Virus record (IMG/VR): IMGVR_UViG_3300040770_000162
Direction: 5' to 3' (one strand)
Length of the DNA: 64,000 nucleotides
Source of the DNA: a virus
Shown one piece after another: positions 32,691 to 57,668 of this stretch (position 1 is the stretch's first letter; each line of letters begins with the position of its first letter). The notes under the pieces were generated by a model, which saw nothing but the letters and a program-made list of their open reading frames with translations, made no database searches and had not been told where the DNA came from. A program made the position numbers and the translations under genes.

Positions 32691-32836
32691 CATTGTGTTT
32701 ATTATTAGACGCAACTCTAATAACCTGTGAGATACACAGCACTATATTACTATAGTGTTCAGACTATATCATCTAAGATCAGCTTTTCCAACACCATAAG
32801 CTTGTGTTGTACTCCTTTCGGATAGTCGTTAGGCAT

Positions 32837-33556: not shown

Positions 33557-33560
33557 AGTA

Positions 33561-33568
33561 CAAAGATA
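33561..33568 (-). promoter_or_regulatory. -7-box-like TATCTTTG inside the intron, upstream of the endonuclease ORF
   Basis: The minus strand reads GTTTATCTTTGTACTATG. The box ends 4 nt before the ATG, so a transcript from it would be leaderless or nearly so. Confidence 0.3.
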
Positions 33569-33696
33569 AACTAATTATATGGTAATTCCAAATAAATATC
33601 GATTTATTTTATATTTTTTTTAATTATAAAATTTAGCACGGGATTGTCCTCGCAGGATATCCCCCGTTTAACTGATTTTTACTTGGGCAACCTTTC

Positions 33697-34429
33697 ACCC
33701 AAGGAATGTGTCAACACTTCTTTGATTCCAATGAAGTTCAAATCCATATTCTGTTACTAAACTAGAATTTAGATACACATCAAGACGTTCTTGTTTATTT
33801 AGAGGTCTTACAACTACTTGAAATCCATAATGACATGGTGGTAAAGCCATATCTGGTAAATCACCAGGATTCCAAGCATTTACAATATGATCTGTAGCTA
33901 AAGGTTTTACTTTAAGATTATGAATTAGTCTTGCAATTTGATCTACTGAATTTGCAATCCAATTTCCGTTATTTTTATCATAATTATGTTTTGCTCCTAC
34001 AAAACTTCTCCATTGCTTACCATAAACAAGTCCTAAATCTCCAAGTTTATAATAACGAGTACTCATTGACAACTTGTCAGCTTTTATTCGTTCAATAAAC
34101 TCTTTAATATCCATTGGTATACCACCTATAAAATCTTTAGTTTTTACATAATAATTATAAGCATCTTTATTCCAAATATTGCAACCATTATCTACAAGAT
34201 ATTTAATATTTGTACCACCACGTAAAAACCATATTAACTCTGTTACAACATTTTTGTAATGGAGTTTTTTTGTAGTTATTGCTGGAAAACTATCTTTAAA
34301 TTCATGTTTAAAAGTATGTGATAATATTTCTAACCTGTTAACACCTTTTCTATTTGGGTCTTCATATGTATAACCTTCTAAAAGTATTTTTTTAAGAAGA
34401 TTATGATATGTTACATCTATTTTACTCAT
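33697..34429 (-). CDS. thyA: thymidylate synthase, exon 1
   Basis: Contains AWNPGDLPDMALPPCHYGFQV (catalytic Cys) and ...HWNQRSVDTFLG. The ORF stops at a TGA created by the intron's first two nucleotides. Confidence 0.85.
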
Positions 34430-43472: not shown

Positions 43473-44039
43473 TTATCTCCATACTGTCCCTCTAACTTCT
43501 GTTAGTATTAGTACTTCATTATGAGGATCTACATAAGTTCCTAATTCTTGGTTATCTGGTATAATAACTCCTAATTCTTTTTGTAAACTCTCTTTTAATT
43601 TTTGATCTTTGTATAATATTTGTTTTACTTTTAATAGAAAGTTCACACCTGCTGGATTTCCAGAATATACTTCTGCCCAAAATCTTAATATTAATTTTTT
43701 AGCATCATCTCCAAATTTGGAATATTGACTACTAAGCAAATAATTATATTCATTAAGATATTCTTCAGGAAATTTAAATACATAAACAGCTTTATCATTT
43801 ATATCTATACATTTTACAAACAATTCATTATTTGTAAGTTTATGTTCATATTTAGTAAATTCAGGATTTTTAAAATCAAATTTATGTAATATAAATATAC
43901 AGTTTTCATACTCATTGTTTTCATCAAACAAGTAAGTATTTAATAGATTTGGTAAAAATTTTATGTTTAAATCTAGTATTTCTGACATTAGCGGTAATAA
44001 ATACGATTTTGATTTATTGTAGTGAGGTTTATTTATCAT
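43473..44039 (-). CDS. hypothetical protein
   Basis: I chose the start at ATG 44039 (MINKPHY). The upstream ATG at 44075 would overlap 47 nt of the endonuclease gene. Confidence 0.55.
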   Translation of the reverse strand: MINKPHYNKSKSYLLPLMSEILDLNIKFLPNLLNTYLFDENNEYENCIFILHKFDFKNPEFTKYEHKLTNNELFVKCIDINDKAVYVFKFPEEYLNEYNYLLSSQYSKFGDDAKKLILRFWAEVYSGNPAGVNFLLKVKQILYKDQKLKESLQKELGVIIPDNQELGTYVDPHNEVLILTEVRGTVWR

Positions 44040-44748
44040 AATAAAGTTTAAAATTAGATTTATTCTTAACCTCATTTCGTAACCAACTCCCTAAAGTTTG
44101 ATATTTAATACTAAATATTTCAGAAACTTCTTTAATAGAATTGTAAATAATTCCACTTTTTGTATCAATTACTTTTTTTTGTAATTTATAATTAGGAATT
44201 CCTAATTTAGCAATTCTCATTTTTTTTATTGCTTCTTGAGATTTTGGTTTATTGACATTACCTTTACTAATATTATTTCTCCATTCTTCTGAAATTTTTC
44301 TACCTTTTCTAGAATTTGACATTTTTTTACGAGTTTCTTCTGAAGCAACTTTACCTATGTTTTTAAAACCCATAGACTGACGAACTTTTTCTGAGTGAAC
44401 TCTACCTGTATTTGCCAAACTTATTTTATTTTTAGTTTCTTGAGATAATTCTCCAGAACTATATGTAGATTGTACTAATGTACAATTCAAACCATCAGTT
44501 ACAACATTATAAAAATCTTGATAATATCTTTCTTTATCGTTTAATAATAAAGTATCACATTCTTCTAATATTTCAAATTTGTGATTTTCTATTCCATATT
44601 TATTAAAAGATCGATTTAATTTTATTTGTAATTTACTTTTTTTTATATTTTTATATTCTTTGAATCGTCTAGTAATATCTACAGCTTGTCCTATATAAAT
44701 TCGTCCAGGCGGACTTTCTATTTTGTATATACCTGTAATTTTACTCAT
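44029..44748 (-). CDS. freestanding GIY-YIG homing endonuclease
   Basis: GIYKIESPPGRIYIGQA...R...Y...E core, four NUMOD3-like repeats (S.ETK.KIS / SEKVRQSM / SEETRKKMS / SEEWRNNIS), and a C-terminal HTH. Confidence 0.75.
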   Translation of the reverse strand: MSKITGIYKIESPPGRIYIGQAVDITRRFKEYKNIKKSKLQIKLNRSFNKYGIENHKFEILEECDTLLLNDKERYYQDFYNVVTDGLNCTLVQSTYSSGELSQETKNKISLANTGRVHSEKVRQSMGFKNIGKVASEETRKKMSNSRKGRKISEEWRNNISKGNVNKPKSQEAIKKMRIAKLGIPNYKLQKKVIDTKSGIIYNSIKEVSEIFSIKYQTLGSWLRNEVKNKSNFKLYYDK

Positions 44749-46559: not shown

Positions 46560-47237
46560 TTACCATAAATTATAGTTTTTTATAATTAACGTGTCATAAA
46601 GATATTCATTACAATCAAGAAAGATATCAGAGTTATTACTTAGTTTAGCATCTGTATTTACAATAATTTTATTATTATCTTTATCAATATATTTACATAA
46701 ATCTAAATGGTCATCTGTTAAAAATAAATAAACAATATTTTTTTTATTATTAATTTCTTTAATAACACATCTAATAAAGTTTTTCCAAACATCAGTATAA
46801 TCTTTATTTTCTTCAACACACATTGACACATTTAAAAATAAGAACCCGTTTTCAGAATAATCATATAAAGAATTATCAAAATCTGATAATTTCATTTGAT
46901 TACCGTAAACACTACTTAAAATACAATCTCTAAATTCTCTTAATTCTATAGGTATGTCAGAGTTTAAGGTGGAGGTTGTTAAAATACCTCTACCTACACC
47001 TGACGATCTTAAATCTTTTACAGGCTTATTGTCAATTATTACAACTTGTAAGTCATCGTAACTACAATCTTTAAAAGGTTGAAACAATCTTTGTTGTTTT
47101 GGATATACTGATTTACCTGATAAATAAACTTGATTTATAAAATTTTCAAGATGTGTAAAATATTCACTTTCATAAAAATCGTAAAGAATAGTCGCCCAGT
47201 CTAAACCTAATTCTTTTTCTATTTTAAATACACTCAT
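46560..47237 (-). CDS. divergent uracil-DNA glycosylase-like protein
   Basis: UDG-like order VYPKQQRLFQPF...LQVVIID..., FLFLNVSMCV, W.NFIRCVI.EIN...IVYLFL. The canonical GQDPYH water-activating loop is replaced by IDNKPV. Confidence 0.4.
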   Translation of the reverse strand: MSVFKIEKELGLDWATILYDFYESEYFTHLENFINQVYLSGKSVYPKQQRLFQPFKDCSYDDLQVVIIDNKPVKDLRSSGVGRGILTTSTLNSDIPIELREFRDCILSSVYGNQMKLSDFDNSLYDYSENGFLFLNVSMCVEENKDYTDVWKNFIRCVIKEINNKKNIVYLFLTDDHLDLCKYIDKDNNKIIVNTDAKLSNNSDIFLDCNEYLYDTLIIKNYNLW

Positions 47238-48960
47238 CTTTTTTTTCTTTAATTTCTAAATCAGCTTTTAATGAAGTTGGAGTATAGTAGTAAGGATCTG
47301 AAAAAGTTGAATAATTTTTTAATGAACTTAATGAATCTAACAATTCTTTAGTTATAAATTTAGTATTTTTTACAACATACTGATTTTTTTTTAAACCATT
47401 ATTTTCTCTTGGTTTAAGAGGTTGATAATTAATTTTTAATTTTGAAAAATCAATATCTTTTTCCCAAGATATACTATGATCTGTTCTAATTTTACTTTCA
47501 GTACCTAAAATATTACCATTTAAAGTTTGATATTGAATATTTTCTTTTCTATTGTAAACATAATCTGTAATATAATCTTGAAATAAATCTAAATCTTGAA
47601 TTTTATTTTTATAAGTATAAACTTGATTACGTAAAATATCGACTAAAGATAAGTTATTTAAATATCCAGGATTTTGTAAAATATTATCTTGATTTTTTAC
47701 TACAAAATTTACAACTAACGCGTTCATCAAAACAAACGGAATTATTTTGTTAGATTCATACGTAGGTGTGTGTATTCTAAATTCAATAGTTTGTTTATTA
47801 CCAAACAATAAAGGTATCATATTATATAACAAATATCTTGGTTTTATTAACCATTTTTGATTACAATTTGGATCTGCAGGGTGTGACACAACATTATCAA
47901 GGTTGTTACCTATTGCTTCAAAACGGTGACCCATTGATAAGTACTCGTAAATAACACCAAAATTGTAATCAATATTAGAACTATCGATAACTCTGTCTAA
48001 TTTTGAGAGTATTTCAAAAGTAGGTAATGGTGCCGAATAGTTTTTATTTTTAATGTTGTAGTTATACTTTTTATATAATGGAAACATTGCAAACACTTCA
48101 TCTTGAATCATCATTCCTACCTTAAAAAAAGCAAGCATAAATTCCTTTGTTCTAGGTAAGTTACCTAAGTGTAAATGCATCGAACAAGTTTTATCATCAT
48201 ATTCTGTACGTTTTTTTAAAACATTAGTAATATCACATATTGCTTGCAAACCTTTTTCACCACCCATTGGTACAGTAACATATTCAATACCTGATATAGA
48301 ACCATCTCGTAATGGAATTAAACCATATTGACTTAGAGTTTTTTTAGAAACAAAACCTTTGGTTGTCTCAAATTCTAAACCAAATGTTAAATCTTCTAAA
48401 ATAGGAGCATAACTTTTAATTGATGAAGAGATTATTGGATTGTAATTTAAGTTATAACTTTCCAAATAGCTATCTAGAATTCCTTTTGAGTCATATGGAA
48501 GACTAGTTTTATAACCTTGACTTGGTACAATTATTTTTGAAAATTCTAAAGCTGGTAATTTTGAAATATGGTAATAATTACCATTTGAAAATCTTTCACG
48601 ATATACTTTACTATTGTTAAAAATATTATTATCAAATATTAAATATTTTTTTCCATATTTATTTATAACTACAGAATGTATTTCTGAATTATTAAAATAT
48701 CCAAAAATTAATTCATCATCAACAACTTCTACAACTCCTTCAACAATATTAAAATCAAGATGTACATATTTATTTACGCTATGGTTAAACACTATTAATT
48801 TTGTTTCTTCTCTGTAGTATTTGTCACCAATTAAATAACAATCTCCAGAATTTTTAATTTCTGGATTACCAATCTTATAATATTCTTTATTGAATTTTTT
48901 ACATTGAGAAATAGGTAATTCTTCTCCTTTTATTGTAATTACTTTTTTTTGAGCACTCAT
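47224..48960 (-). CDS. amidoligase (Amidoligase_2 / glutamine-synthetase-like) with N-terminal extension
   Basis: FGLEFETTKG, LRDGSISGIEYVTVP and CSMHLHLG are arranged as in the amidoligase family. About 170 aa at the N-terminus are unassigned. Confidence 0.55.
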   Translation of the reverse strand: MSAQKKVITIKGEELPISQCKKFNKEYYKIGNPEIKNSGDCYLIGDKYYREETKLIVFNHSVNKYVHLDFNIVEGVVEVVDDELIFGYFNNSEIHSVVINKYGKKYLIFDNNIFNNSKVYRERFSNGNYYHISKLPALEFSKIIVPSQGYKTSLPYDSKGILDSYLESYNLNYNPIISSSIKSYAPILEDLTFGLEFETTKGFVSKKTLSQYGLIPLRDGSISGIEYVTVPMGGEKGLQAICDITNVLKKRTEYDDKTCSMHLHLGNLPRTKEFMLAFFKVGMMIQDEVFAMFPLYKKYNYNIKNKNYSAPLPTFEILSKLDRVIDSSNIDYNFGVIYEYLSMGHRFEAIGNNLDNVVSHPADPNCNQKWLIKPRYLLYNMIPLLFGNKQTIEFRIHTPTYESNKIIPFVLMNALVVNFVVKNQDNILQNPGYLNNLSLVDILRNQVYTYKNKIQDLDLFQDYITDYVYNRKENIQYQTLNGNILGTESKIRTDHSISWEKDIDFSKLKINYQPLKPRENNGLKKNQYVVKNTKFITKELLDSLSSLKNYSTFSDPYYYTPTSLKADLEIKEKKDECI

Positions 48961-48963
48961 ATT

Positions 48964-50874
48964 TTATTTTTTAACAGGTTTTTCAATAAAATCTTTTAAT
49001 GTGTGATTTATCAAACTTAGTGTATTTAAAGCACTTTTTATATCTTCATTACTTGCCCAATCAGCAAATTCCAAAATAGTTCCATCTATATCTTCAGCAT
49101 GTTTTTCAAAAGATTCAGCAATTAATTCTTTTACAAATATTTCGTCAGCTTCTAAATCTGTAATTTTACTTTCTAATTTTTCAGAATCTACTATATCTTT
49201 TTCAATTTTTGAAATAGCTTCAACTGAACTATCAAACAAAACTTTATTAAATTTAGAATTAATTTTAGCTTCTGGTAAAATAATGACAGATGTTTCTGAT
49301 TTTACAGGTTGTAAATCTTCTCTTTTAGACCATTTAACTAATATTCCGTTATTAAAAGAATATGTTTTTTCAAAACCAAGTTCTGTAAATGTACCAGTAT
49401 ATCTTTTACCATCTAACATTGCAATACTAGGTGTGTTTTCAGTTGCTAGGTTTATTACAGGATGTTTAGACATATGTGATAATGCTTCAAAATCAACATA
49501 TTTAATACCATATTTTAAGTTGTTTTTAAGATTTAAAGCCATTGAATAATCTGCAAAATTTTTTAATAAAACCCCATCTACAAAATAATAAAATGGAACT
49601 GTTGATAGATCTTCATCAAATATAATGTCACCAACTTGTGCAGATAAATTATAAATAAAATAACCTGTATCGTAGTTAAAAGTTAAACCTTTAAAACCAT
49701 TAAACATACTTTGAGCTCCAGCTGTTGCTAACGATACAAATTTAAAACCATAGTTTTTAATATATACAAATACTCCTGAAATTAAAGCACCTCTACTCCA
49801 GTATCTTAAACTTTTATTGTAAACTTTATCTTTATAAAATGAAATTGGGTTAACAGTTAAATCATTGTGTAAATTAGTTAATACAGAAACTGTTGGGGAA
49901 GTGTTAACTGAAGGTTTTGTATCATATATATCATAATAATCATCAGAAAAAGTTTTTTTATAATTTTGACTATATACAATTGCTTCGTTTTGACCTGCGT
50001 TCCTCCGACTTATCTTATGTTTTTCAGCATTTGCAAAATCACCATCAGTAATAATATATACTGTGTTATAGTCAATTTGTGTTTTATCTTTAGCTGTAGC
50101 ACCTAAAACCATTAATCCATTTTTTAGTGATGAAAAAAACATGCTGTTTTCATTTTTACAATAAACATTCATAGGTCTCTCTTCTGTTTCAATAGAAACT
50201 GTTGTACCTTGAGTATGTTTAGATGCTCCAGACCATAAATATAATTTGTTTGGTTCATCAATCCATGTCCAAGCTAGAGCTGCTGCTCCAACATATTCAC
50301 TTAAAACTTTAAAATTTTTAGTCTTGTAAAGTATTTCACCTAATATTTCACTATCAATTTTAGTTCTTGTTATTTCATATGGATGACCACTAGGATAGTG
50401 TTCAGTATATGTAACTTTAGTTTCAATACCATATTTTTTAGCTAAATCTTCATGATTTCTTAAAGTACCATTATGACAAAATATCATACCGTAACTATCA
50501 TTAGCTTTATTAGCACCAAATCCAAATGGATGAGCATTATGTTCATTTATTGCCATACCTTGACTAGGTTGTCTTGTATGACCAATCATAATAGGTGTCT
50601 GTATAGGTTTAATTTCTCTATCAACAATAAAATCTGTATATAGTTTGTCAAAACCGATACCATATTGTACATCACCATCCCAAGATAAACCACAAGACAT
50701 TTTACCACGTTCAATATTATAAATTCCTAAAATATGAACACCATTAACATCTAAGTTTTCAGGTGTATTTGTGGCTTGACCAAAAATACCACAGTTTAAA
50801 GAATTAGATTTGTAACCAAATATAAAATTACTAATGTATTGTAATAATGTTAATATTAAAATTATTTTTACCAT
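48964..50874 (-). CDS. class-II (Ntn) glutamine amidotransferase-like protein with propeptide and C-terminal extension
   Basis: NCGIFG nucleophile motif after 27 hydrophobic residues, then GHTRQPSQG, NAHPF, CHNGTLRNH and DSEILGE. About 350 aa at the C-terminus are unassigned. Confidence 0.6.
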   Translation of the reverse strand: MVKIILILTLLQYISNFIFGYKSNSLNCGIFGQATNTPENLDVNGVHILGIYNIERGKMSCGLSWDGDVQYGIGFDKLYTDFIVDREIKPIQTPIMIGHTRQPSQGMAINEHNAHPFGFGANKANDSYGMIFCHNGTLRNHEDLAKKYGIETKVTYTEHYPSGHPYEITRTKIDSEILGEILYKTKNFKVLSEYVGAAALAWTWIDEPNKLYLWSGASKHTQGTTVSIETEERPMNVYCKNENSMFFSSLKNGLMVLGATAKDKTQIDYNTVYIITDGDFANAEKHKISRRNAGQNEAIVYSQNYKKTFSDDYYDIYDTKPSVNTSPTVSVLTNLHNDLTVNPISFYKDKVYNKSLRYWSRGALISGVFVYIKNYGFKFVSLATAGAQSMFNGFKGLTFNYDTGYFIYNLSAQVGDIIFDEDLSTVPFYYFVDGVLLKNFADYSMALNLKNNLKYGIKYVDFEALSHMSKHPVINLATENTPSIAMLDGKRYTGTFTELGFEKTYSFNNGILVKWSKREDLQPVKSETSVIILPEAKINSKFNKVLFDSSVEAISKIEKDIVDSEKLESKITDLEADEIFVKELIAESFEKHAEDIDGTILEFADWASNEDIKSALNTLSLINHTLKDFIEKPVKK

Positions 50875-50881
50875 TTTTTTA

Positions 50882-51694
50882 TTATTTATTTAAAATTTTT
50901 ACTTGTGAATTAGTTATTACTTTAATTTTGTTAAGTAATTCTTGAGCCAATTGTTTATTGTTAGTATTAATTGCTTCTACAATATAATCACCTAATTCTT
51001 TAACTTCATCAATTTTGTTTGTATTTAACAAATCAATTGCTTTTAATGTAGTATTCCAAGCCCATTTTAATGATTCATCAGATCTAATCCAAAAGTTTGA
51101 AAGACTACGATATTCAATACCATAATCTCTAAATCTAAAACAACCTGCTTTACCATAAAGTTTTTTACGTTCTGTATCAGGATCTAACAATATAGATTCT
51201 AGTCCTATAGTCGCATCCATAGCTTTAACCATGTCAATTTGTTGTTCTTGTGTAGGATTATCCCAACCAATACTAATATGACCCCCACACACTCTTAAAT
51301 TAGTAGTGCTCAAATCTGCAGGTGTGTTCATACCTTCTTTCCATACATCAAAATCTGGTTCACAACCTGCAAGCCGCGCAATATCATTGTCTAACTCAGA
51401 TTCATCTAATGTAGCAGAAGCATTTATTGCTAATGTACAACCCATTCCAGAAACTAGTACTTCTAAATAATCTTTTACAAAATTATTATGAAATACCCAA
51501 TCACTTACATTCAAACAGGGTGGAATATTGTATTCAATAGCAACATTGTCTTCTTGAATAAAGTGACCATCATCTGAAATCGGTTGGGGTTCCGATTTAG
51601 AACCCCCTATTTTACCAATTGCTGAAATAATTTTACCGTCTTTTTGTAGAAATAATTCTGGATCTGTACCTAAGCTAATATTTTGAATTTTCAT
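50882..51694 (-). CDS. COOH-NH2 ligase type 2-like (phiEco32-like) protein, tentative
   Basis: The N-terminal LGTDPELFL motif and the size fit my recollection of that family. Context with other amide-bond ligases supports it. Confidence 0.4.
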   Translation of the reverse strand: MKIQNISLGTDPELFLQKDGKIISAIGKIGGSKSEPQPISDDGHFIQEDNVAIEYNIPPCLNVSDWVFHNNFVKDYLEVLVSGMGCTLAINASATLDESELDNDIARLAGCEPDFDVWKEGMNTPADLSTTNLRVCGGHISIGWDNPTQEQQIDMVKAMDATIGLESILLDPDTERKKLYGKAGCFRFRDYGIEYRSLSNFWIRSDESLKWAWNTTLKAIDLLNTNKIDEVKELGDYIVEAINTNNKQLAQELLNKIKVITNSQVKILNK

Positions 51695-51700
51695 ATATTT

Positions 51701-52549
51701 TTATTTATTTTTTAAATATCTACTAATTAAATTTAAACACATCATAGACGTATTTTTTTCACAATAACTCCATTCAGGATGTCCTTGAATACATAAAGCC
51801 TTTGTATTTTTATAATACACTATTTCAGGTTCAAGAAAATCAATTGGTAAATCAACTTCTTCATTATCACCGTTTAAATATGTAGTACTTTGAAAAAATT
51901 CTGAATGAGCAATTAATTCATAGTCATTTTTAGGTAAATTAAATGGAAATAACATTTGATGATGTGAGGAAGTCATTACATATTTACTGCCTGTACTGTT
52001 TATAATAATACTATGATCTCTACCATGACCTTCAACGTGTTGAATTAGTTTACCACCACTTAATGCTGTAAGCATTTGGGAACCTCGACATATTCCTAAG
52101 AATAACACTTTACCATAAAAATAGTCATATACTTCACTTTCAATAGTGTCTCTATAACCATTTATACTAGTATATTTACCAACTTTTTCATTATAAAATT
52201 CGGGACTAATATCTTCACCACCTGTAAATAAAACTAAATCTATTTTTACCTCAGTTGGTAATTCTCTAAAATTGTGAACTGTAACTTCAAATTTATTTTC
52301 TAAAAATTTAACATATTCTAAAGATGAACTTCTATCAGCAATTATTATATTTAATTTTTCTTTAATAATTACAAATGATTCATCTAAATATTGAAACACT
52401 GTATTTATTTTATCTTCCATCAAGTCACCTTCAATTTCATCATACATTTTAGCGGTTATACAGCCATTTAAAAGTGATTTTACTATTGATCTATTACTGT
52501 CTTTAGTTATACTGTAATTGTTTAGTATTTCTATTAATTTTGGATTCAT
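51701..52549 (-). CDS. peptidase C26 / class-I amidotransferase-like gamma-glutamyl hydrolase
   Basis: GICRGSQML (Cys nucleophile), SSHHQ, and IQGHPEW (His/Glu). Confidence 0.7.
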   Translation of the reverse strand: MNPKLIEILNNYSITKDSNRSIVKSLLNGCITAKMYDEIEGDLMEDKINTVFQYLDESFVIIKEKLNIIIADRSSSLEYVKFLENKFEVTVHNFRELPTEVKIDLVLFTGGEDISPEFYNEKVGKYTSINGYRDTIESEVYDYFYGKVLFLGICRGSQMLTALSGGKLIQHVEGHGRDHSIIINSTGSKYVMTSSHHQMLFPFNLPKNDYELIAHSEFFQSTTYLNGDNEEVDLPIDFLEPEIVYYKNTKALCIQGHPEWSYCEKNTSMMCLNLISRYLKNK

Positions 52550-53412
52550 TTGTTATTGTTTTTATCAATTAATAATTGTGGTAAAATTTCTGCATATTTT
52601 TTACCTGTAATTTCACCAAAACTTGGTGCAGAACAGCTTTCAAAAATAATCCATTCAGGATTTTCTCTTTCAACACCGTCTTTAGCTCCCTGAACACCTA
52701 CGTCAAATGCGCAAATGTCTAAACCTAAGGCATCTTTAGCTTTAATACAGTCTGCAACAATGTCATCCCAATTTCTAGGTTTTTTAAAAGACGGGTTTTC
52801 TTCTAATATCCAATTACAAACATCATCGTGACGTTGCCAAGTATTTTCTGGAGCATCATTTCTAACTAATTTTCTACAAGAATAAAAACAACCAAATTTA
52901 GTTACGTGTAATCTATATTCTCTAGTCATTTTTACAAACTGTTCAAATATATAACTATTAAGATTTTTATTTGGTAACCAAGCTTCCAATTCTTCTTTAT
53001 TATTAAATTTAGTATTACCAGTACCTCTTGAACCAAAATGAGATTTAGCTACAATGGGATATAAAAATTTAGATAGAGGATCATTACTAGGCTCTTCATT
53101 ATTAAATTTACAACTTAATAAAATACCTTTAAATTCTACATCTTCTCCATAATATAAAGTCCACCAATCAGCAGTTTTAACACTAGCTTGAGTAAACCTC
53201 TCTTTCATTAGCAATTTAGAAGCAGAATTTTTAACAGCTTGTATTGTATTAATTTCAACTCTATCATCCGATTCTGTTGACGATCCAAGTCTTATAACAG
53301 ATCTAAACGGTAATAAAGGTAATGTTTTATTATTAGCTCTCAACACTGAGTGCGAAGGATGACGTGATAAAATCAGGGGTCTAAATAACTTATATTTTTT
53401 TAATTTATTCAT
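52546..53412 (-). CDS. ATP-grasp ligase (RimK-like)
   Basis: KLLMKERF, IVAKSHFGSRGTGN, IFEQFVKMTREYRLHV, and ICAFDVGV...IFESCSAPSFG. Confidence 0.65.
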   Translation of the reverse strand: MNKLKKYKLFRPLILSRHPSHSVLRANNKTLPLLPFRSVIRLGSSTESDDRVEINTIQAVKNSASKLLMKERFTQASVKTADWWTLYYGEDVEFKGILLSCKFNNEEPSNDPLSKFLYPIVAKSHFGSRGTGNTKFNNKEELEAWLPNKNLNSYIFEQFVKMTREYRLHVTKFGCFYSCRKLVRNDAPENTWQRHDDVCNWILEENPSFKKPRNWDDIVADCIKAKDALGLDICAFDVGVQGAKDGVERENPEWIIFESCSAPSFGEITGKKYAEILPQLLIDKNNNK

Positions 53413-54100
53413 TGTTTAAATTTAATAAATGGTTAATTAAAAATATTGAAGCGGGATCTCTACTGTCTTCAACGTGATGTTGTGTCATGTGACATGGATA
53501 AAATGGAAATGTAGTAGCCATTTCAATTTCAAAATCTTTATCGTGTTTTGCAAGAATTGTAACCATGTGAGGTTTAGTTTCTTCATTTATAGTTTGATGA
53601 TGCCTACTGTTAATTTTGTATTCACCTGGTTTATGTTGTGTAATTTCAGAAAATCCTGGAACAATTTCTTGGTTTTCAAATGTAATACCATGCATTAGTT
53701 TACCACCATCATGTGAAGGATTTGTTTCATGCGACATATGTTGATTAAGTTTACCACCTAATGTAACATACATTGATTGCATACCACGGCAAGTACAAAA
53801 GATTGGAATATTTGCAGCCATATATTTAGGTAACAAAATTCTGTCAAATCTTTCTTTTTGCATACAAGGTGTACCTGTAAATATATGAGTATCTTCTTCA
53901 GGTGTTAAATATCTATAAGGATCTACATCTTGACCACCTGGCATTACTAACAAATCTACATCTCTTACGTGATTTTCAAATGGTGAAATTAAAGATACTT
54001 CTCCAAATTGTTGCCAAAAGAATAAATATGATTTAGAAATTCCAAAACTATTTTCACCCGTGAAATGTCCAACTATTGCTATTTTTTTTATATTATTCAT
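53405..54100 (-). CDS. peptidase C26 / class-I amidotransferase-like protein (second copy)
   Basis: VMPGGQDVDPYRY, TCRGMQSM and SRHHQ. The C-terminal His/Glu motif is less clear. Confidence 0.6.
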   Translation of the reverse strand: MNNIKKIAIVGHFTGENSFGISKSYLFFWQQFGEVSLISPFENHVRDVDLLVMPGGQDVDPYRYLTPEEDTHIFTGTPCMQKERFDRILLPKYMAANIPIFCTCRGMQSMYVTLGGKLNQHMSHETNPSHDGGKLMHGITFENQEIVPGFSEITQHKPGEYKINSRHHQTINEETKPHMVTILAKHDKDFEIEMATTFPFYPCHMTQHHVEDSRDPASIFLINHLLNLNNE

Positions 54101-54114
54101 TATTTTTATTTATT

Positions 54115-55113
54115 TTATAAATTGTTAAAAAACCAAGCTCTAGATTTATTTGCAATTAAACTTGCTACTTTTTTCCACTCAATTTGATTTTTAATTAACA
54201 CGTCAGATTCTTCTTTTAATATATCATTACAAATGTATTTTAAAAATTCACATGTTAATTTTTGATTAACTTCTACATTATTATCTTTAATATTTTGTAA
54301 AGCTTGATTTAATCTATTTTCTGTTACTGAATATTCTACAAATTCATTTAAAGAATTTAATTCTTCTTCATTTACAGAGTTTAGAACTTTAACTTTTGAA
54401 ACAGAATGTTTCTCACCTTTAGATTTAAATTTTAAATCTGGATAATCTATTGAAGTAAATACAATTCCTTCACCAATTCCAGAAATATTAAAATATTTAC
54501 CTACAGGACATTCTTCTTCAACTTTAATAGTTAAATCGATTAATTTATTTTGAATTAATTCTGGATTTTCAAAATCAATTTCAACATTATAAGTTGGAAA
54601 TTGTTCAATAATATAAACATTTTGTTTATTAAATAATTCTGAATTAAAATTTAAATTTTCTAAATTAATCCATTTATCATCAATTTTAATTCCAAAAATT
54701 ACAAATATTTTAGGTAATTCTGTTAAAGCAACTCCTTTTTGAATATTACTTCCACACCATTCTCCATAAATAGCAATATATTCTTTAAATTTAAATTTAT
54801 CAAATATTTCACTAAAATCAACGTTACTCATATTTAACATAAATCCAGCATTATCTTGCTGTAAAGATAATTCTCTTTCTCTGGATTGATAAATAATGAA
54901 GTTATTAATATATTTTACTATTCCAGCATTTGTACCATGTAATTTAACAGTTCCTTTAAATTGTAATTTTGGATAATTTGTTAAATGTTGATAAATTGGA
55001 TTTCCTTGCTCATCATTTCCTTGATAATCATGATCAATTTTAACTTTTTTAATAATATTTCTATATTGTTCTATACTTGGATATTTTTTCATATTTTTAA
55101 TTATTTGTAGCAC
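54115..55113 (-). CDS. ATP-dependent RNA ligase (Rnl2-like nucleotidyltransferase)
   Basis: Motif I KLHGTN, motif III-like IYGEWCG, motif IV GEGIVF, motif V KFKSKGEKH. Confidence 0.65.
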   Translation of the reverse strand: MLQIIKNMKKYPSIEQYRNIIKKVKIDHDYQGNDEQGNPIYQHLTNYPKLQFKGTVKLHGTNAGIVKYINNFIIYQSRERELSLQQDNAGFMLNMSNVDFSEIFDKFKFKEYIAIYGEWCGSNIQKGVALTELPKIFVIFGIKIDDKWINLENLNFNSELFNKQNVYIIEQFPTYNVEIDFENPELIQNKLIDLTIKVEEECPVGKYFNISGIGEGIVFTSIDYPDLKFKSKGEKHSVSKVKVLNSVNEEELNSLNEFVEYSVTENRLNQALQNIKDNNVEVNQKLTCEFLKYICNDILKEESDVLIKNQIEWKKVASLIANKSRAWFFNNL

Positions 55114-55507
55114 TTAAATAAAATTTTTCTGTATTCTTAAAATCTACCCAGTCACCTGATTCAACAATAGAATCTTTTAACAATTCATTTACATAAATAT
55201 ATGTAAAAGCTTTACCCCAAGGTGTATCAATTTCAATTCTATCATAAAATGTAGGTTTTCTATCAGCACTATAACCTTCTAAAGTATTTAAATTATTTAA
55301 TACGTTTTCAGTTACTTCATAAACTTCCATTACAACAGAAGTGTTACCGTTTAATTTTAATCCTGGATACGCACTTAAACTATGTAATGTATATTCTGGT
55401 TCTGTTGAAAATATACCTTTATAATCTGAATTAGATAAATAGTAATTATGATTACCCATTGTTTTACGAAGACTGCCATATACAGCCACTAAATATTTTT
55501 TACGCAT
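55097..55507 (-). CDS. gamma-glutamylcyclotransferase (AIG2/GGACT-like)
   Basis: VAVYGSLRKTMGNHNYYL and MEVYEV...LNTLEGY. Confidence 0.65.
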   Translation of the reverse strand: MRKKYLVAVYGSLRKTMGNHNYYLSNSDYKGIFSTEPEYTLHSLSAYPGLKLNGNTSVVMEVYEVTENVLNNLNTLEGYSADRKPTFYDRIEIDTPWGKAFTYIYVNELLKDSIVESGDWVDFKNTEKFYLSATNN

Positions 55508-55508
55508 A

Positions 55509-55940
55509 TTATTTTATTAATTTTAATCCTTCTTGTAGTCCTTCTTCTAAAACTTTTTCGTAAGACTCATCTGTAAGGTTTCCTTTTGTGTTTATGTATC
55601 TTGAAAACTTATCCCTTGATAGAGACCAACCTTTGGTAGGAGGATACAGTACTGTATAGGAGTATTTTGCATTTACCTCGGTATGTGTAGTTACAAAAAC
55701 TTTAATGTTATGAATTTCTCTTAACCATTTTTGAAGCAGGGTTTGAGTTGGTCGTGAATAAAATTTAACAGTTGAATTTTTTCCAAAGTTGTTAAAATCA
55801 AATTCACTTAATGATTTGCTATATTGTTTTATTTCTGTTTTACAAGAAATTGTAGTAGCTATTGAGCAAGATACTTCGCAGTCAAACTCTTTTTCTTTAG
55901 CTAATTTAGCTGTTTCAAATGTTATTAATTGTTCTTTCAT
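55509..55940 (-). CDS. hypothetical protein
   Basis: 143-aa ORF lying between the two GGCT-like genes. Confidence 0.55.
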   Translation of the reverse strand: MKEQLITFETAKLAKEKEFDCEVSCSIATTISCKTEIKQYSKSLSEFDFNNFGKNSTVKFYSRPTQTLLQKWLREIHNIKVFVTTHTEVNAKYSYTVLYPPTKGWSLSRDKFSRYINTKGNLTDESYEKVLEEGLQEGLKLIK

Positions 55941-55942
55941 TT

Positions 55943-56434
55943 TTAAACTTTTAAACTGTTAATATGCTCAATCCAATCACCATCAATTATTAATTCTTTT
56001 GAATCTTGTTCAGTAATTGATATATAAAGTGTAATATTACCAAATGGTGAAACTAAAGTTTTTTTTGTATATTCTTGAGGATAATCTTCAAATTCTGCAT
56101 AATAACAGTATTCTTTTTCAATTTTAATTAAAGAAGATTCATTAACTTCCCACACTTCAATTTTAATGGAAGAATTACCATTTTCTTGAATAACACAATT
56201 GTTATCATTTTCTACATAATACATGTTATAAATAGGTTCTGTTGAAAATGTACCTATTAATTTACATGTAGGTTCTGGTAACAAACTATTTAATATGCCA
56301 TCTTTTCTAAAATGATCGTAAATACCTACTAAATGTTTTTTTTCCATTTTTGATTGTTTTGTTAATTCTCTGCGTTCTTTTTTTAACTCCGCTTTTGTTT
56401 TATAACCTGGAGATCTTTTATTAGTTTTTCTCAT
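55943..56434 (-). CDS. degenerate GGCT-like paralog with basic N-terminal tail
   Basis: LVGIYDHFRKDGILNSLL and IKIEVWEV...IEKEYCY parallel 55097-55507, but YGSL and EGY are altered. It has a 30-aa Lys/Arg-rich N-terminus. Confidence 0.4.
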   Translation of the reverse strand: MRKTNKRSPGYKTKAELKKERRELTKQSKMEKKHLVGIYDHFRKDGILNSLLPEPTCKLIGTFSTEPIYNMYYVENDNNCVIQENGNSSIKIEVWEVNESSLIKIEKEYCYYAEFEDYPQEYTKKTLVSPFGNITLYISITEQDSKELIIDGDWIEHINSLKV

Positions 56435-56446
56435 TTATAATTATTT

Positions 56447-57472
56447 TTAAAAAGGTAATAATGTTTCACGAAATAGTATTTCATTTGCGATTTCTTTACC
56501 AAAATTCTTTACTAGATCTGAAAAGTCTTTAGATTCATATTTACTTGGTATAAAACTATCAACTAATCCAAATTCTGTAGCAAATTTATCTGCAAATATT
56601 CTACCCCAATTAGGGTTTTTATCAAAATCATTATCATATAATAATTCAATATCTGTGAACCTTGATTTTAATTGTTCAAATATATGTCTTTTTGGCAAAA
56701 CATTTTCAGATTGCATTGCAATAGCTGGTAATTTAGCAACTTCATATAAACACATTACATCTTTTAAAGATTTAGTTATAATTAAAGTTTCACCTTTCTC
56801 AGGCAATTGTGTCCAACCTTGCCATACTGAATTATTGTGATTGTTAATCCATTTGTAATTTTCATTAAATGGTTGATATATTTTATAAGTTTCAATACCG
56901 TCTTTCATTTCAATAAAGCAATATGTGTATTTATCTGCAGGGAAACATTTGTCACCTATAAATATAAAACTTATTGGTTGTACATTAAAAAATTCTAAGG
57001 TTTGTTTACCAATACCGTATTGTCTCCAAAATAATACATCGTGTGATTGCCATTCTCTAGCTTTTTTACCAAGATAATAACCTGTATATTTAGACAACAT
57101 ATCATCTTTGACAATTCTAACTTTATCTTTATCACTAGCACTTTTAGGATATATTTTACAAACATAGTCATCTTGAAGATTAAAATCATTTGCTACTTTA
57201 CTTAAAGCTTCAAAATATGTCAAACCATCACGTAGTCTTAAAAATTGTATAAAATCACCTTTTCCAAGCTTAAAATCATTAAAACATACTTCATTACCTT
57301 CTCCAACAAAAAATCCAAATGAAGGGTTCTTTTCACGTCTTAAAGGAGATAATATTAACTTACCTAGACTAACTTCATCTTCTATATAATGCTGAAATAT
57401 TTCTAATTCATTAAAGTATTTTAATATTTCAGATTTAGATATTAATTGTTTTTCTTTATTTAAATCAAACAT
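56447..57472 (-). CDS. DnaG/TOPRIM-type DNA primase with degenerate zinc-binding region
   Basis: REKNPSFGFF...CFNDFKLGKGDFIQFL aligns to the primase zinc ribbon but keeps only one Cys. TOPRIM-like LIITKSLKD and LYDNDFD follow. Confidence 0.6.
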   Translation of the reverse strand: MFDLNKEKQLISKSEILKYFNELEIFQHYIEDEVSLGKLILSPLRREKNPSFGFFVGEGNEVCFNDFKLGKGDFIQFLRLRDGLTYFEALSKVANDFNLQDDYVCKIYPKSASDKDKVRIVKDDMLSKYTGYYLGKKAREWQSHDVLFWRQYGIGKQTLEFFNVQPISFIFIGDKCFPADKYTYCFIEMKDGIETYKIYQPFNENYKWINNHNNSVWQGWTQLPEKGETLIITKSLKDVMCLYEVAKLPAIAMQSENVLPKRHIFEQLKSRFTDIELLYDNDFDKNPNWGRIFADKFATEFGLVDSFIPSKYESKDFSDLVKNFGKEIANEILFRETLLPF

Positions 57473-57473
57473 T

Positions 57474-57668
57474 TTATTCGTTAATTAAAGTTAATGTTTT
57501 TTTAACTGTTTTATTTTTATAAACAGAACATTGAAAATTATTAGTTTGACCTTTACAAAATATATGTGTACAATTTTTAACTAACATTGATTCAGTAAAA
57601 TCTTCTGGCTTTTCACAAACATTACAATATTCTTGAATTTCTTCTTTTATTATTTTATTTGATTCCAT
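57474..57668 (-). CDS. small Cys-rich zinc-ribbon-like protein
   Basis: CNVC-x14-CTHIFC plus one more Cys, 64 aa. It ends 1 nt before the primase ATG. Confidence 0.45.
   Translation of the reverse strand: MESNKIIKEEIQEYCNVCEKPEDFTESMLVKNCTHIFCKGQTNNFQCSVYKNKTVKKTLTLINE

Follow-up and report, generated by a model that had tools for sequence, protein, structure and literature searches.

A phage cassette of amide-bond ligases and gamma-glutamyl-handling enzymes was first described by comparative genomics in 2009 (Iyer et al. 2009), as the first-pass annotation of the locus studied here had correctly stated in citing work by Iyer, Aravind and colleagues. The Pfam family PF14395 is named for this core cassette, which is present in 306 sequenced phage records, including PaP3/LUZ24-like and phiEco32/SU10-like phages and Cellulophaga phage phi14:2. 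Proteomics of SU10 classed the ATP-grasp protein, the amidotransferase and a YtfP/GGCT-like protein as 'early gene products', and in a Pseudomonas phage each of two evolved lines carried missense SNPs in both the amidoligase and amidotransferase genes. The literature searched for an experimental function of cassette members offered speculation only, in agreement with the earlier statement that there is no known product or target. The novelty suggested there was overstated, since Pfam and PHROG families are already named for the cassette and hundreds of cultured phages have it annotated.

Organization of the gene block

The window analysed is a stretch of 64,000 nucleotides from the IMG/VR virus record IMGVR_UViG_3300040770_000162. 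Ten back-to-back ORFs, all on the minus strand, occupy positions 47224-56434. Judged by its gene families, this block is an expanded copy of the known phage-specific phiEco32-type amidoligase cassette, whose conserved core comprises six families: GGCT, ATP-grasp, peptidase C26, COOH-NH2 ligase, Ntn glutamine amidotransferase and Amidoligase_2. Members of the block and its neighbours are listed below in the 5' to 3' order of the minus strand.

56447..57472, minus strand: DNA primase, upstream neighbour outside the cassette (phrog_12622 1e-59)
55943-56434, minus strand: GGCT-like paralog with a K/R-rich N-terminal tail (phrog_2520 2.4e-8; Pfam match sub-threshold only)
55509-55940, minus strand: 143-aa protein of unknown function (phrog_12005, unknown function, 1e-24)
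55097-55507, minus strand: gamma-glutamyl(amine) cyclotransferase, AIG2/GGACT family, core (PF06094 6.5e-18, above cutoff; phrog_2520 1.9e-23)
54115-55113, minus strand: Rnl2-like RNA ligase (RNA_ligase PF09414 1.8e-11; phrog_548 1e-55)
53405-54100, minus strand: Peptidase_C26 copy a, class-I GATase fold, core (PF07722 2.4e-23 vs PF00117 5e-9)
52546-53412, minus strand: ATP-grasp ligase, closest to the RimK type, core (phrog_2599 1.2e-22)
51701-52549, minus strand: Peptidase_C26 copy b, class-I GATase fold, core (PF07722 5.7e-13; phrog_7218 5e-32)
50882-51694, minus strand: phiEco32-type COOH-NH2 ligase type 2, core (PF14395 28.7 bits, cutoff 25; phrog_3815 7.4e-71)
48964-50874, minus strand: class-II (Ntn) glutamine amidotransferase, core (family profile matches PurF/GlmS glutaminase domains, 1.6e-23)
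50794..50874, minus strand: hydrophobic leader peptide MVKIILILTLLQYISNFIFGYKSNSLN ahead of catalytic Cys28 of the amidotransferase, helix predicted at residues 2-19
47224-48960, minus strand: Amidoligase_2, GS/GCL-like carboxylate-amine ligase, core (PF12224 23.1 bits, cutoff 22; phrog_2443 1.6e-27)
46560..47237, minus strand: UNG-fold protein, downstream neighbour (PDB UNG 8ail 5e-10)

Nine of the ten products fall into the family named in the first-pass annotation, and the tenth, listed there as unknown, matches phrog_12005. The three overlaps it quoted (55113/55097, 53412/53405 and 52549/52546) are likewise present, amounting to 17 nt between the GGACT/AIG2 and RNA ligase genes (55097-55113), 8 nt between C26 copy a and the ATP-grasp gene (53405-53412), and 4 nt between the latter and C26 copy b (52546-52549), with gaps of 1-14 nt at each remaining junction inside the block. 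Spacing is equally tight at both ends of the block, where 12 nt separate it from the primase gene and 14 nt overlap with the UNG-like gene. The block lies within a longer minus-strand array from ~31.9 to 62.8 kb and is not a delimited operon. Promoter-like and terminator-like sites were no commoner than in shuffled sequence. That the block follows the primase within a crAss-like replication module, as proposed, is borne out by synteny of the region with the Crassvirales phages phi14:2 and cr108_1. In the neighbouring UNG-fold protein the catalytic Asp and His are missing (in the alignment, DNKPVK stands in place of GQDPYH, and NTDAKLS in place of HPSPLS).

Conservation and spread of the cassette

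The window was compared with 84 related phage loci (85 loci in total), picked by similarity of the COOH-NH2 ligase and consisting mostly of crAss-like contigs, so that the co-occurrence counts are not an unbiased survey. Of the related loci, 63 have 6 kb or more of flanking sequence on either side; in 40 of these all six core families occur in conserved order, and 12 more lack GGCT only. The core is thus co-conserved as a gene neighbourhood, and its order is maintained more than chance grouping would explain. Adjacent pairs are Amidoligase_2 and the amidotransferase (77 loci), C26 and the COOH-NH2 ligase (59) and GGCT and ATP-grasp (28). The GGCT family is found in 53/85 loci, usually next to a primase or an ATP-grasp gene.

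The same six-family set is carried by PaP3, UFV-P2, the phiEco32-like Bas90, phi14:2 and cr108_1, and in phi14:2 it occupies the same primase-to-UDG position. In crAss-like, PaP3 and Bas90 architectures, a primase or primase/helicase gene adjoins the GGCT/ATP-grasp end or lies one small gene from it, and in a fourth architecture a replicative helicase is located two or three genes downstream. Accessory genes vary, and include an additional Ntn-like gene as well as GNAT-like genes, which in three cases are fused to the COOH-NH2 ligase. At 50% identity the COOH-NH2 ligase family forms 4,718 clusters. Bacterial chromosomes are virtually without it, with only 12 loci found in 185,579 species genomes, all of them on MAG contigs or tiny scaffolds.

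Instead of the ten-gene functional unit proposed earlier, the block consists of the six-family cassette, with C26 and GGCT duplicated, and two passengers, which are present in 1/85 (RNA ligase) and 10/85 loci (143-aa gene) and are not co-conserved with the rest. The RNA ligase, which contains VKLHGTN, presumably Rnl2 motif I, is restricted to this window and missing from relatives at 80-87% identity. Its GC content (21.4%) is the lowest of the block, and its best relatives are stand-alone RnlB genes in unrelated phages. Because of this single occurrence, low GC and stand-alone kinship, it is regarded as an insertion unrelated to the cassette. The 143-aa gene varies in position, within or outside the cassette, and is by its distribution an accessory passenger outside the core, inserted independently.

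Core enzymes

The COOH-NH2 ligase, the marker gene of the cassette, belongs to the GCS2/GS-like superfamily, and its invariant residues are D11, E13, E54, H139, R187, E194 and R196. Those of Amidoligase_2, which has an additional N-terminal domain of ~170 aa, are E196, E198, D219, E226, H262, H264, E393 and R395; its AF2 model, of low confidence, gave E. coli gamma-glutamylcysteine synthetase (E 3.8e-3) and glutamine synthetases as best Foldseek matches. The two ligases have an HxH motif in common, and each keeps invariant GS-like residues (E, H, R) for metal and ATP binding. When searched singly against Pfam, the ATP-grasp protein had no match, and its match to TIGR00768 rimK_fam (1.9e-5) is below cutoff. 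The family profile matches PurD (1e-9), cyanophycin synthase and RimK-type ligases, including a full-length match to the alpha-L-glutamate ligase 7qyr (7e-7) and a match to RimK 5zct; K66, E165, R167, H169, K181, D237 and E258 are invariant.

Both C26 copies have their triads (C104, H209, E211 in copy a; C154, H257, E259 in copy b, which adjoins the COOH-NH2 ligase). Since PF07722 scores well above PF00117, a gamma-glutamyl hydrolase is favoured over a glutaminase subunit.

The amidotransferase is composed of a 27-aa hydrophobic leader, an Ntn domain, a beta-rich middle domain and a C-terminal coiled coil. The match to PurF/GlmS begins at the catalytic Cys, the invariant residues are C28, R101, N135-G136 and D174, and Foldseek matches of the AF2 model (pLDDT 82) are confined to the Ntn domain. 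In this window there is no start codon beside the catalytic Cys, and the enzyme would have to shed its 27-residue leader to expose it. Such a hydrophobic leader is found in 27/78 homologs, while 49/78 begin with MCG. No hydrophobic segment or signal peptide was detected in the other nine proteins of the block.

Two cyclotransferases had been annotated. Both copies are GGCT-like, and YGSLR and LEGY motifs are intact in the 55097-55507 copy, but in the 55943-56434 paralog the motifs have degenerated to IYDHFR and IEKEY, and this paralog is probably not a canonical cyclotransferase. It has 14 K/R among its first 34 residues, and basic-tailed GGCT paralogs recur across related crAss-like loci. Judged by their conserved catalytic residues, the ligases, the amidotransferase, both C26 copies and one GGCT look active.

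Possible function of the cassette

From family chemistry and gene pairing, we consider the chance about even that the cassette builds an amide- or peptide-type group on a low-molecular-weight acceptor by ATP-dependent ligation, glutamine-dependent amidation and gamma-glutamyl removal. The earlier proposal, a gamma-glutamyl-type tag or metabolite that the phage makes and trims, still accounts most economically for the enzyme set. We lean towards a small molecule because the C26 and GGCT enzymes characterised so far use free gamma-glutamyl compounds as substrates, the compared loci showed no small ORF that recurs from lineage to lineage and could be a protein substrate, and the accessory genes vary as in biosynthetic clusters.

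Some features sit less easily with this reading. C26 beside the COOH-NH2 ligase (59 loci) fits a GatD/MurT-type two-subunit glutamine-dependent amidotransferase as well as it fits a hydrolase. Large non-catalytic domains, namely the N-terminus of the amidoligase (~170 aa), the beta-rich and coiled-coil parts of the amidotransferase, and the poly-basic tail of the GGCT paralog, suit recognition of a macromolecule better than of a metabolite, and a metabolite role does not account for the repeated placement by primase or replication genes.

Protein tagging, in the manner of RimK on S6, LysX on LysW or PafA with Pup, appears rather unlikely. Here a host or phage protein would receive glutamate or a different amino acid from the ligases, at its C-terminus or on an acidic side chain, the amidotransferase pair would turn Glu of the tag to Gln, and C26 and GGCT would trim or reverse it. 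The nearest full-length structural relatives of the ATP-grasp protein are RimK-type alpha-L-glutamate ligases, GS-like ligases include Pup ligase, and the extra domains, coiled coil and basic tail point the same way. Furthermore, the ATP-grasp gene of LUZ24-like loci is followed by that of a small zinc-ribbon protein whose acidic tail ends in E or DE, and in PaP3 it is preceded by ORF44 (72 aa, ending ...YYFE). Iyer et al. are said to have raised peptide tagging for related systems in 2009. However, a candidate substrate ORF common to the crAss-like, LUZ24-like and phiEco32-like versions was not found, and the RimK equivalog score is 24 bits against a cutoff of 143. Moreover, the known GGCT and C26 enzymes that have been characterised depend on a gamma-glutamyl group whose alpha-amine is free, or on a small substrate. 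An amino-acid-derived adduct on DNA or a dNTP, or another form of genome protection against restriction, would account for the placement with replication genes, a primase or helicase being nearby in four gene orders. At ~9 kb in Bas90 and roughly 6-8 kb out of 45.5 kb in PaP3, the cassette has a size typical of DNA-modification pathways. Every Gordonclarkvirinae phage among those listed carries it, and both the poly-basic tail and the loss of catalytic residues from the neighbouring UNG-fold gene in this clade agree with such a role. In some viral contigs, amidoligase and amidotransferase genes co-occur with thymidine-hypermodification genes (PMC8989533). Nucleic-acid modification is nevertheless improbable: DNA of the carrier phage tf was cut by RsaI, HpaI, EcoRV, SmaI and HaeIII, cloned and Sanger-sequenced, the window has an ordinary dTTP route (thymidylate synthase, dUTPase, RNR), and neither a 5-hmU kinase nor a glycosylase-like transferase or hydroxymethylase turned up when the replication module was scanned with PHROG. 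We know of no characterised member of the six core families that acts on DNA, and the BASEL authors point elsewhere, to a dCTP deaminase and nucleotidyltransferase locus.

Peptidoglycan side-chain synthesis and amidation use comparable enzymes, Aslfm with AsnH (ATP-grasp and Ntn-amidotransferase) and the amidotransferase pair MurT/GatD. Remodelling of the cell envelope for superinfection exclusion, with carboxylates of stem-peptide precursors or another envelope component extended or amidated, is credited in passages of later papers to Iyer et al. 2009. The TM-like leader in 27/78 amidotransferase homologs would fit, as would the named hosts, all Gram-negative among the 95 COOH-NH2 ligase phage records listed. 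We hold this to be quite improbable, as the leader is missing from two thirds of amidotransferase homologs, the other nine proteins of the block have no hydrophobic segment or signal peptide, amidoligase and GGCT pairs occur in Clostridium prophages too, and the stem peptide offers no obvious GGCT substrate because the alpha-amine of D-Glu is blocked. By our own reasoning, slow wall remodelling is also hard to fit into the lytic cycle of these virulent carriers. If the acceptor were a soluble precursor, envelope remodelling would merge partly with the small-molecule reading. A generic auxiliary module boosting host nitrogen assimilation or the glutathione/gamma-glutamyl cycle, as proposed for 'Phage-ZRK32', is very improbable, even though a GCL-like ligase, an ATP-grasp enzyme and GGCT resemble three steps of that cycle. 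Bacteroidota hosts generally lack glutathione, and none of the proteins attains the equivalog score of any housekeeping enzyme. The near-absence of the COOH-NH2 ligase from cellular genomes tells against a borrowed host pathway. For Phage-ZRK32 the same genes were annotated as amidoligase, glutamine amidotransferase, glutathione synthase and gamma-glutamylcyclotransferase, and growth was stimulated with nitrate or ammonium (eLife 2024), which is indirect support from growth rather than from an enzyme assay.

In the favoured small-molecule chemistry, three putative ATP-dependent carboxylate-amine ligases (RimK-like ATP-grasp, COOH-NH2 ligase type 2 and Amidoligase_2) would cooperate with three glutamine- or gamma-glutamyl-handling enzymes, the Ntn amidotransferase, the C26 hydrolases in two copies and the AIG2-type GGCT, one intact with a degenerate paralog. 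One GS/GCL-like ligase would phosphorylate a glutamate-type carboxylate and couple an amine to give a gamma-glutamyl-X intermediate, and ATP-grasp would join a further amino acid to the free carboxylate, as GshB or RimK does. The amidotransferase would hydrolyse glutamine and hand ammonia to the neighbour-encoded Amidoligase_2, converting the activated carboxylate to a carboxamide, and C26 and GGCT would take off gamma-glutamyl groups as glutamate or 5-oxoproline, so that gamma-glutamate may serve as a building block or a temporary protecting group. The cassette would be expressed together with early/middle replication genes and would act on an acceptor that it does not itself encode, for which protein or DNA is less likely, and a cytoplasmic amine, a small peptide or a cell-envelope precursor is favoured.

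Organization of the gene block and its genomic setting

Ten ORFs at 47224-56434 are part of a minus-strand gene array that extends in the window from about 31.9 to 62.8 kb. All of them were recovered exactly at the coordinates proposed in the first-pass annotation, and each family label assigned there is supported by Pfam, PHROGs and NCBIfam profile searches.

Genes of the block in order of transcription, the amidotransferase leader and the downstream neighbour
55943-56434, minus strand: GGCT-like, first gene, weak (phrog_2520, 2e-8; no PF06094 match)
55509-55940, minus strand: 143-aa gene with no named function (phrog_12005)
55097-55507, minus strand: second GGCT (GGACT/AIG2; 6.5e-18, 65.9 bits, cutoff 22.8)
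54115-55113, minus strand: RNA ligase (PF09414, 1.8e-11, above cutoff)
53405-54100, minus strand: peptidase C26 (2e-23)
52546-53412, minus strand: ATP-grasp ligase, sixth gene (without Pfam match by itself)
51701-52549, minus strand: peptidase C26 (6e-13)
50882-51694, minus strand: COOH-NH2 ligase type 2 (PF14395, 28.7 bits, cutoff 25; phrog_3815, 7.4e-71)
48964-50874, minus strand: class-II (Ntn) glutamine amidotransferase (PurF/GlmS profile match)
50794-50874, minus strand: amidotransferase leader, 27 residues, hydrophobic and TM-like, ahead of catalytic Cys28
47224-48960, minus strand: Amidoligase_2 (PF12224, 23.1 bits, cutoff 22; phrog_2443, 1.6e-27)
46560-47237, minus strand: UNG-fold gene downstream of the cassette (family-1 UNG, PDB 8ail, 5e-10)

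The three overlaps quoted previously are genuine (17, 8 and 4 nt), and the other junctions among the ten genes are gaps of 1-14 nt. The block is separated from the upstream primase by 12 nt and overlaps the downstream UNG-like gene by 14 nt. Promoter-like and terminator-like sites were not more frequent than in shuffled sequence, in a scan made uninformative by AT-richness. Since the same tight spacing continues into both neighbours and no excess of sites was observed, the ten genes do not constitute a delimited operon, as had been suggested, but a part of a longer co-directional array.

According to profile scans, the upstream flank encodes DnaB, a Sak4-like ATPase and primase. The UNG-like gene, RusA, exonuclease, RNR, dUTPase and thymidylate synthase follow downstream. 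The flanks match two phages of the Crassvirales in order and sequence, namely Cellulophaga phage phi14:2 and the uncultured phage cr108_1. A nucleotide search with the region gave no match among 50,697 phage records, and an amidoligase identical to that of the window was found on a 102-kb JGI metagenome contig. The window phage is an uncultured crAss-like phage of about 26% GC.

In the split thymidylate synthase gene (32353-34429, minus strand), an ORF for a GIY-YIG homing endonuclease (32837-33556) separates the N-terminal part (33695-34429) from the C-terminal part (32353-32742), an arrangement that looks like a td-type intron or split gene. A second GIY-YIG homing endonuclease is located at 44029-44748 (minus strand), between the exonuclease and the next gene.

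Core families and inserted genes

For comparison, 84 related loci were fetched, and their ORFs were called and clustered; with the window, the set comprises 85 loci. In this set, which is dominated by crAss-like contigs, was chosen on the COOH-NH2 ligase and is not an unbiased census, the amidotransferase is present in 81 loci, the COOH-NH2 ligase (by construction, as the selection protein) in 80, the amidoligase in 79, ATP-grasp in 73, C26 in 71 (112 copies) and GGCT in 53 (70 copies). Flanks of 6 kb or more on both sides are available for 63 loci, of which 40 carry all six families and another 12 lack GGCT alone. Amidoligase and amidotransferase genes adjoin in 77 of the 79 loci bearing the amidoligase, C26 and COOH-NH2 ligase in 59 loci, and GGCT and ATP-grasp in 28.

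The proposed ten-gene unit therefore holds for six families, which are co-conserved, and fails for the remaining two genes: the RNA ligase is present in 1/85 loci and the 143-aa gene in 10/85, at varying positions. Based on family counts and adjacent pairs across the 85 loci, the functional unit is the six-family cassette, with the RNA ligase and the 143-aa gene as insertions.

The only locus with the RNA ligase is the window itself, and relatives at 80-87% protein identity do not have it. Its GC content of 21.4% is the lowest within the block. The KLHGTN sequence is presumably motif I with the nucleotidyltransferase lysine. The protein scores 15 bits against TIGR02307 (Rnl2 equivalog, cutoff 197), and a PDB sequence search with it gave no match. 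Its nearest homologs are stand-alone RnlB-type genes of unrelated phages, and in Leptolyngbya phage Lbo-JY46 a homolog lies 15 kb away from the amidoligase. Participation of the RNA ligase in the pathway, for example in tRNA or RNA-linked chemistry, was considered and rejected in view of conservation and GC content.

ATP-grasp and GS-like ligases

A profile built from 52 homologs of the ATP-grasp protein matches PurD, cyanophycin synthase and PurK, and aligns along its full length with RimK-type alpha-L-glutamate ligases, while the score against the RimK family model TIGR00768 (24.1 bits) does not reach the cutoff of 143.4. Judged by these profiles, the sixth gene is an ATP-grasp enzyme to which the RimK type is the closest.

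Invariant acidic, His and Arg residues are kept in both COOH-NH2 ligase and Amidoligase_2, including the catalytic E/H/R residues of the latter, and an HxH motif is common to these two GS-like ligases. PDB searches, both single-sequence and family-profile, retrieved nothing for either of them, so there is no solved structure from which a substrate could be borrowed. The AlphaFold model of the amidoligase is poor (pLDDT 57), with an uninterpretable N-terminal domain; in structure it comes closest, with weak matches, to the gamma-glutamylcysteine synthetase of E. coli and to glutamine synthetases.

Many relatives (L012-L015 and L039-L054 of the compared loci; ORF families f23, f63 and f101), but not the window, encode between ATP-grasp and C26 a small GNAT-like domain that bears an NC(C/Q)G motif. 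In three independent clusters at 50% identity (P0263, P0315, P0359), the COOH-NH2 ligase carries this domain as an N-terminal fusion, suggesting that a fourth type of ligase or transferase is associated with the cassette. A fusion of C26 with the ligase was also sought as support for coupling, but the fused N-terminal domains proved to be GNAT-like.

The amidotransferase and its leader

The residues C28, R101, N135-G136 and D174 of the amidotransferase are all invariant, preserving the glutamine-binding Arg, the oxyanion Asn-Gly and the Asp. Its profile aligns to PurF and GlmS starting at the catalytic Cys (1.6e-23). This Cys is residue 28, and the preceding segment, MVKIILILTLLQYISNFIFGYKSNSLN, is hydrophobic and predicted to be helical. 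There is no start codon adjoining Cys28. The leader occurs in 27 of 78 homologs, including that of phi14:2, and 49 of the 78 start with MCG, some close relatives of the window among them. Leader removal would be needed for Ntn catalysis; the leader would imply autoprocessing, and perhaps a transient tethering of the enzyme to the membrane.

The AlphaFold model of the amidotransferase is good. Beyond the Ntn domain, a linker modelled as disordered is followed by a domain rich in beta structure (about residues 340-520) and a long coiled coil. A Foldseek search with the model detected the Ntn domain only, and the linker, the 340-520 domain and the coiled coil gave no structural match.

C26 and GGCT genes

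Both C26 copies score above the PF07722 cutoff and keep their Cys-His-Glu triads (C104/H209/E211 and C154/H257/E259, respectively). The YGSLR and LEGY motifs are intact in the second GGCT (55097-55507). In the GGCT-like first gene (55943-56434), YGSL and LEGY are degenerate and read IYDHFR and IEKEY, and a long basic tail contains 14 K/R within the first 34 residues. Such basic-tailed GGCT paralogs, likewise with degenerate motifs, are seen repeatedly among related crAss-like loci, and the layout with two C26 and two GGCT genes is common to close relatives of the window.

In five loci (L006, L008, L015, L025, L037), an opposite-strand ORF of the unannotated family f16, possibly a candidate homing endonuclease, splits one C26 gene in two. 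Seven gut crAss-like cassettes (L001, L064, L065, L077, L079, L081, L084) are without GGCT. The same loci carry two tandem paralogs of family f40 (about 300-335 aa) between ATP-grasp and C26, for which no Pfam or PHROG match was obtained.

Distribution of the cassette in other phages

The cassette is already known and widely annotated, and the window adds another example. The amidoligase cassette of phiEco32-type phages was reportedly described by Iyer, Abhiman, Burroughs and Aravind in 2009, and the Pfam title of PF14395 is ‘Phage phiEco32-like COOH.NH2 ligase-type 2’. Annotations of PaP3, UFV-P2, Bas90 and phi14:2 list this gene set, which is also seen in cr108_1. All its features are found in the window: the PF14395 and PF12224 ligases, Ntn amidotransferase and ATP-grasp, in one co-directional cluster.

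Cassette genes are co-conserved across unrelated phage lineages. Cassettes of phiEco32-like (SU10, Bas90) and PaP3/LUZ24-like phages share five families with the window, and some also have a C26/GATase-like gene; in many LUZ24-like contigs of the set, a C26-family gene lies a few genes upstream of the ligase. As in the window, they are co-directional, tightly packed and located beside primase or primase/helicase genes. The order in the window, primase-GGCT-GRASP-C26-CNL-GAT2-AML (GRASP, ATP-grasp; CNL, COOH-NH2 ligase; GAT2, Ntn amidotransferase; AML, amidoligase), is reversed with respect to PaP3 (CNL-x-AML-GAT2-...-ATP-grasp-GGCT-x-primase/helicase) and Bas90 (CNL-x-AML-GAT2-GRASP-GGCT-primase). 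The window copy also differs from these phiEco32-like and PaP3/LUZ24-like cassettes in having two C26 and two GGCT genes, the amidotransferase leader and the inserted RNA ligase. Its amidotransferase (636 aa) and amidoligase (578 aa) are longer than those of LUZ24-like contigs (about 420-540 and 310-440 aa).

The nearest cultured relative is Cellulophaga phage phi14:2 (Crassvirales, Steigviridae), with genes g037-g041 at 28-49% amino-acid identity. The order in this phage is the same as in the window (primase, GGCT, ATP-grasp, COOH-NH2 ligase, amidotransferase, amidoligase, UDG-like, RusA, exonuclease), and its amidotransferase of 638 aa also has a hydrophobic leader, whereas C26, the second GGCT, the 143-aa gene and the RNA ligase are absent.

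The COOH-NH2 ligase occurs in 306 phage records, among them 121 for Pseudomonas, 93 for Escherichia, 19 for Vibrio and 11 for Aeromonas, with Bacteroidota and cyanobacteria also among the hosts; all named hosts among the records listed are Gram-negative. Two short peptide patterns retrieved 423 confirmed loci in IMG/VR, and an exhaustive search for the ligase gave 4,718 clusters at 50% identity. Cellular genomes contributed just 12 loci in 185,579 species genomes, all of them on MAG contigs or tiny scaffolds. The cassette is thus essentially phage-restricted. Partial versions, consisting of amidoligase plus GGCT, have been reported in Clostridium prophages.

Proposed chemistry and related pathways

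The cassette is conserved, placed among replication genes and restricted to phages; its catalytic residues are intact, and its three pairings of a ligase gene with a glutamyl-enzyme gene are conserved as well. Following the chemistry of the families, the GS/GCL-like ligases would activate a glutamate-type carboxylate and couple it to an amine, and ATP-grasp would extend a free carboxylate. The amidotransferase would deliver ammonia to the neighbouring amidoligase for conversion of a carboxylate into an amide, and C26 and GGCT would take off gamma-glutamyl groups as glutamate or 5-oxoproline. The earlier suggestion that the phage builds and trims a gamma-glutamyl-type tag or small peptide-like metabolite is reasonable as chemistry, with six families rather than ten genes as its unit.

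These steps share their logic with glutathione synthesis, the Puu/Pau amine pathways and the gamma-glutamyl protecting groups of butirosin synthesis. The gamma-glutamyl cycle and glutathione synthesis (GshA/GCL, GshB, GGCT) likewise employ a GCL/GS-fold ligase, a RimK/GshB-clade ATP-grasp and GGCT, but the cassette has in addition the amidotransferase-amidoligase pair and is restricted to phages. None of the ten proteins reached the GshA or GshB models of NCBIfam, and neither gamma-glutamyl transpeptidase nor 5-oxoprolinase turned up when the block and its neighbouring genes were scanned. In amine gamma-glutamylation (PuuA/PuuD, PauA/PauD, IpuC/IpuF), a GS-like ligase is paired with a C26 hydrolase, and in butirosin synthesis the ATP-grasp BtrJ is paired with the GGCT BtrG for the gamma-glutamyl protecting group. 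The same pairs adjoin in the cassette, which nevertheless is without the oxidase, dehydrogenase, decarboxylase or carrier protein of these pathways, and the likeness is at the family level only (PuuD model, 18.7 bits vs cutoff 266). In two-component glutamine-dependent amidation by MurT/GatD, and by AsnB-like LtsA and AsnH, a glutaminase operates with an ATP-dependent carboxylate-amidating ligase. The cassette resembles such systems in the glutaminase gene beside the ligase gene; its synthetase partner is a GS-like amidoligase instead of a Mur-ligase or PP-loop domain.

In agreement with the first-pass annotation, which assigned no product or target, the searched literature (with the 2009 analysis covered through citing papers) contains no experiment naming a substrate or product of the cassette. 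Among the ‘early gene products’ listed by SU10 proteomics are ATP-grasp, amidotransferase and a YtfP-like protein. When a Pseudomonas phage was subjected to directed evolution, the amidoligase and amidotransferase genes gained missense changes in both of the resulting lines.

Acceptor and alternative explanations

The cassette does not itself encode the acceptor. An encoded tag or carrier substrate was considered and rejected: lineage-specific small proteins exist, but no small ORF is common across lineages. In LUZ24-like versions (L058, L069, L074, L075), a 54-77-aa zinc-ribbon protein of family f69 follows the ATP-grasp gene. It has a CxxC...CxxC pattern and a strongly acidic C-terminal tail, ending in E or DE in three of the four. 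The 72-aa ORF44 of PaP3 (10129-10347 in L003) ends in ...YYFE. Such ends resemble the acceptor tails of LysW or the S6 type; small acceptor-like proteins of either type were not found in crAss-like versions. A 64-aa Cys-rich protein is encoded in the window upstream of the primase (57474-57668, minus strand). It ends in ...TLTLINE, and its sole homolog in the set (L053) in ...TLTLIKQ, with E versus Q as the last residue.

We lean towards an acceptor of low molecular weight, because the C26 and GGCT enzymes characterised to our knowledge act on free gamma-glutamyl compounds, and because accessory genes, including the ligase-fused GNAT-like genes, vary as they do in biosynthetic clusters. We give a small-molecule acceptor, soluble envelope precursors included, about an even chance. 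Some features argue instead for a macromolecular target, namely the large extra domains with the coiled coil, the basic-tailed GGCT paralog and the persistent linkage to primase genes; tagging of proteins by the cassette is considered rather unlikely. Papers published in 2023-2025 still refer to the 2009 analysis for the idea that the cassette modifies the cell wall, excludes superinfecting phages or makes a secondary metabolite; remodelling of the envelope for the purpose of exclusion appears quite improbable. In a 2024 eLife paper, these genes are interpreted as auxiliary genes of nitrogen metabolism from indirect growth data, and generic nitrogen metabolism is the explanation to which we give the least credence.

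Modification of nucleic acids or anti-restriction is improbable as well, although it would account for several features at once. The cassette could, as a long shot, represent an unrecognised pathway of genome protection, placing an amino-acid-derived amide adduct on phage DNA, a nucleotide precursor or a replisome component and maturing it by means of C26 and GGCT. Genome protection would explain why the cassette always travels with primase or helicase genes, why small podoviruses spend roughly 6-9 kb on it, and how the phiEco32-like phages examined, all of them cassette carriers, resist restriction-modification (RM) without a known modification pathway. In Bas90 (L097), the cassette lies directly upstream of primase/helicase, the exonuclease subunit of DNA polymerase, and the genes for a ‘nucleotidyltransferase’ and dCTP deaminase. 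It is to the ‘nucleotidyltransferase’/dCTP deaminase locus that the BASEL authors tentatively ascribe the RM resistance of the phiEco32-like group, for which the cassette is an alternative candidate. DNA of phage tf, a cassette carrier, was cut by five restriction enzymes and then cloned. PHROG scans of 30 neighbouring ORFs, about half of which remained without assignment or matched only families of unknown function, revealed thymidylate synthase, dUTPase and RNR, and no 5-hmU DNA kinase, glycosylase-like transferase or dUMP hydroxymethylase.

In the UNG-fold gene downstream of the cassette, GQDPYH is replaced by DNKPVK and the His motif HPSPLS by NTDAKLS. The DN[KR]PVK form is common to the genes of close relatives, and gut crAss-like L001, L064 and L077 keep GQDPY...HP. 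Judged by its motifs, this gene probably does not encode an active uracil glycosylase and may have been repurposed.

Significance of the cassette

The question about the cassette product predates the window and is real and probably important. As a clean crAss-like example, the window contributes testable details, which are leads and not an answer: the distinction between core and passenger genes, the three ligase/glutamyl-enzyme gene pairs, a putatively cleavable amidotransferase leader and a degenerate, basic-tailed GGCT paralog. It also connects, through the literature, with the unexplained resistance of phiEco32-like phages to RM. Cultured carriers suit further work on the cassette better than the uncultured window phage. 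Described more than 15 years ago, the cassette ranks with the largest of those multi-enzyme pathways that are almost confined to phages. Identification of its product would bring to light a new phage metabolite, a new modification of proteins or of the envelope, or a new chemistry of DNA protection.
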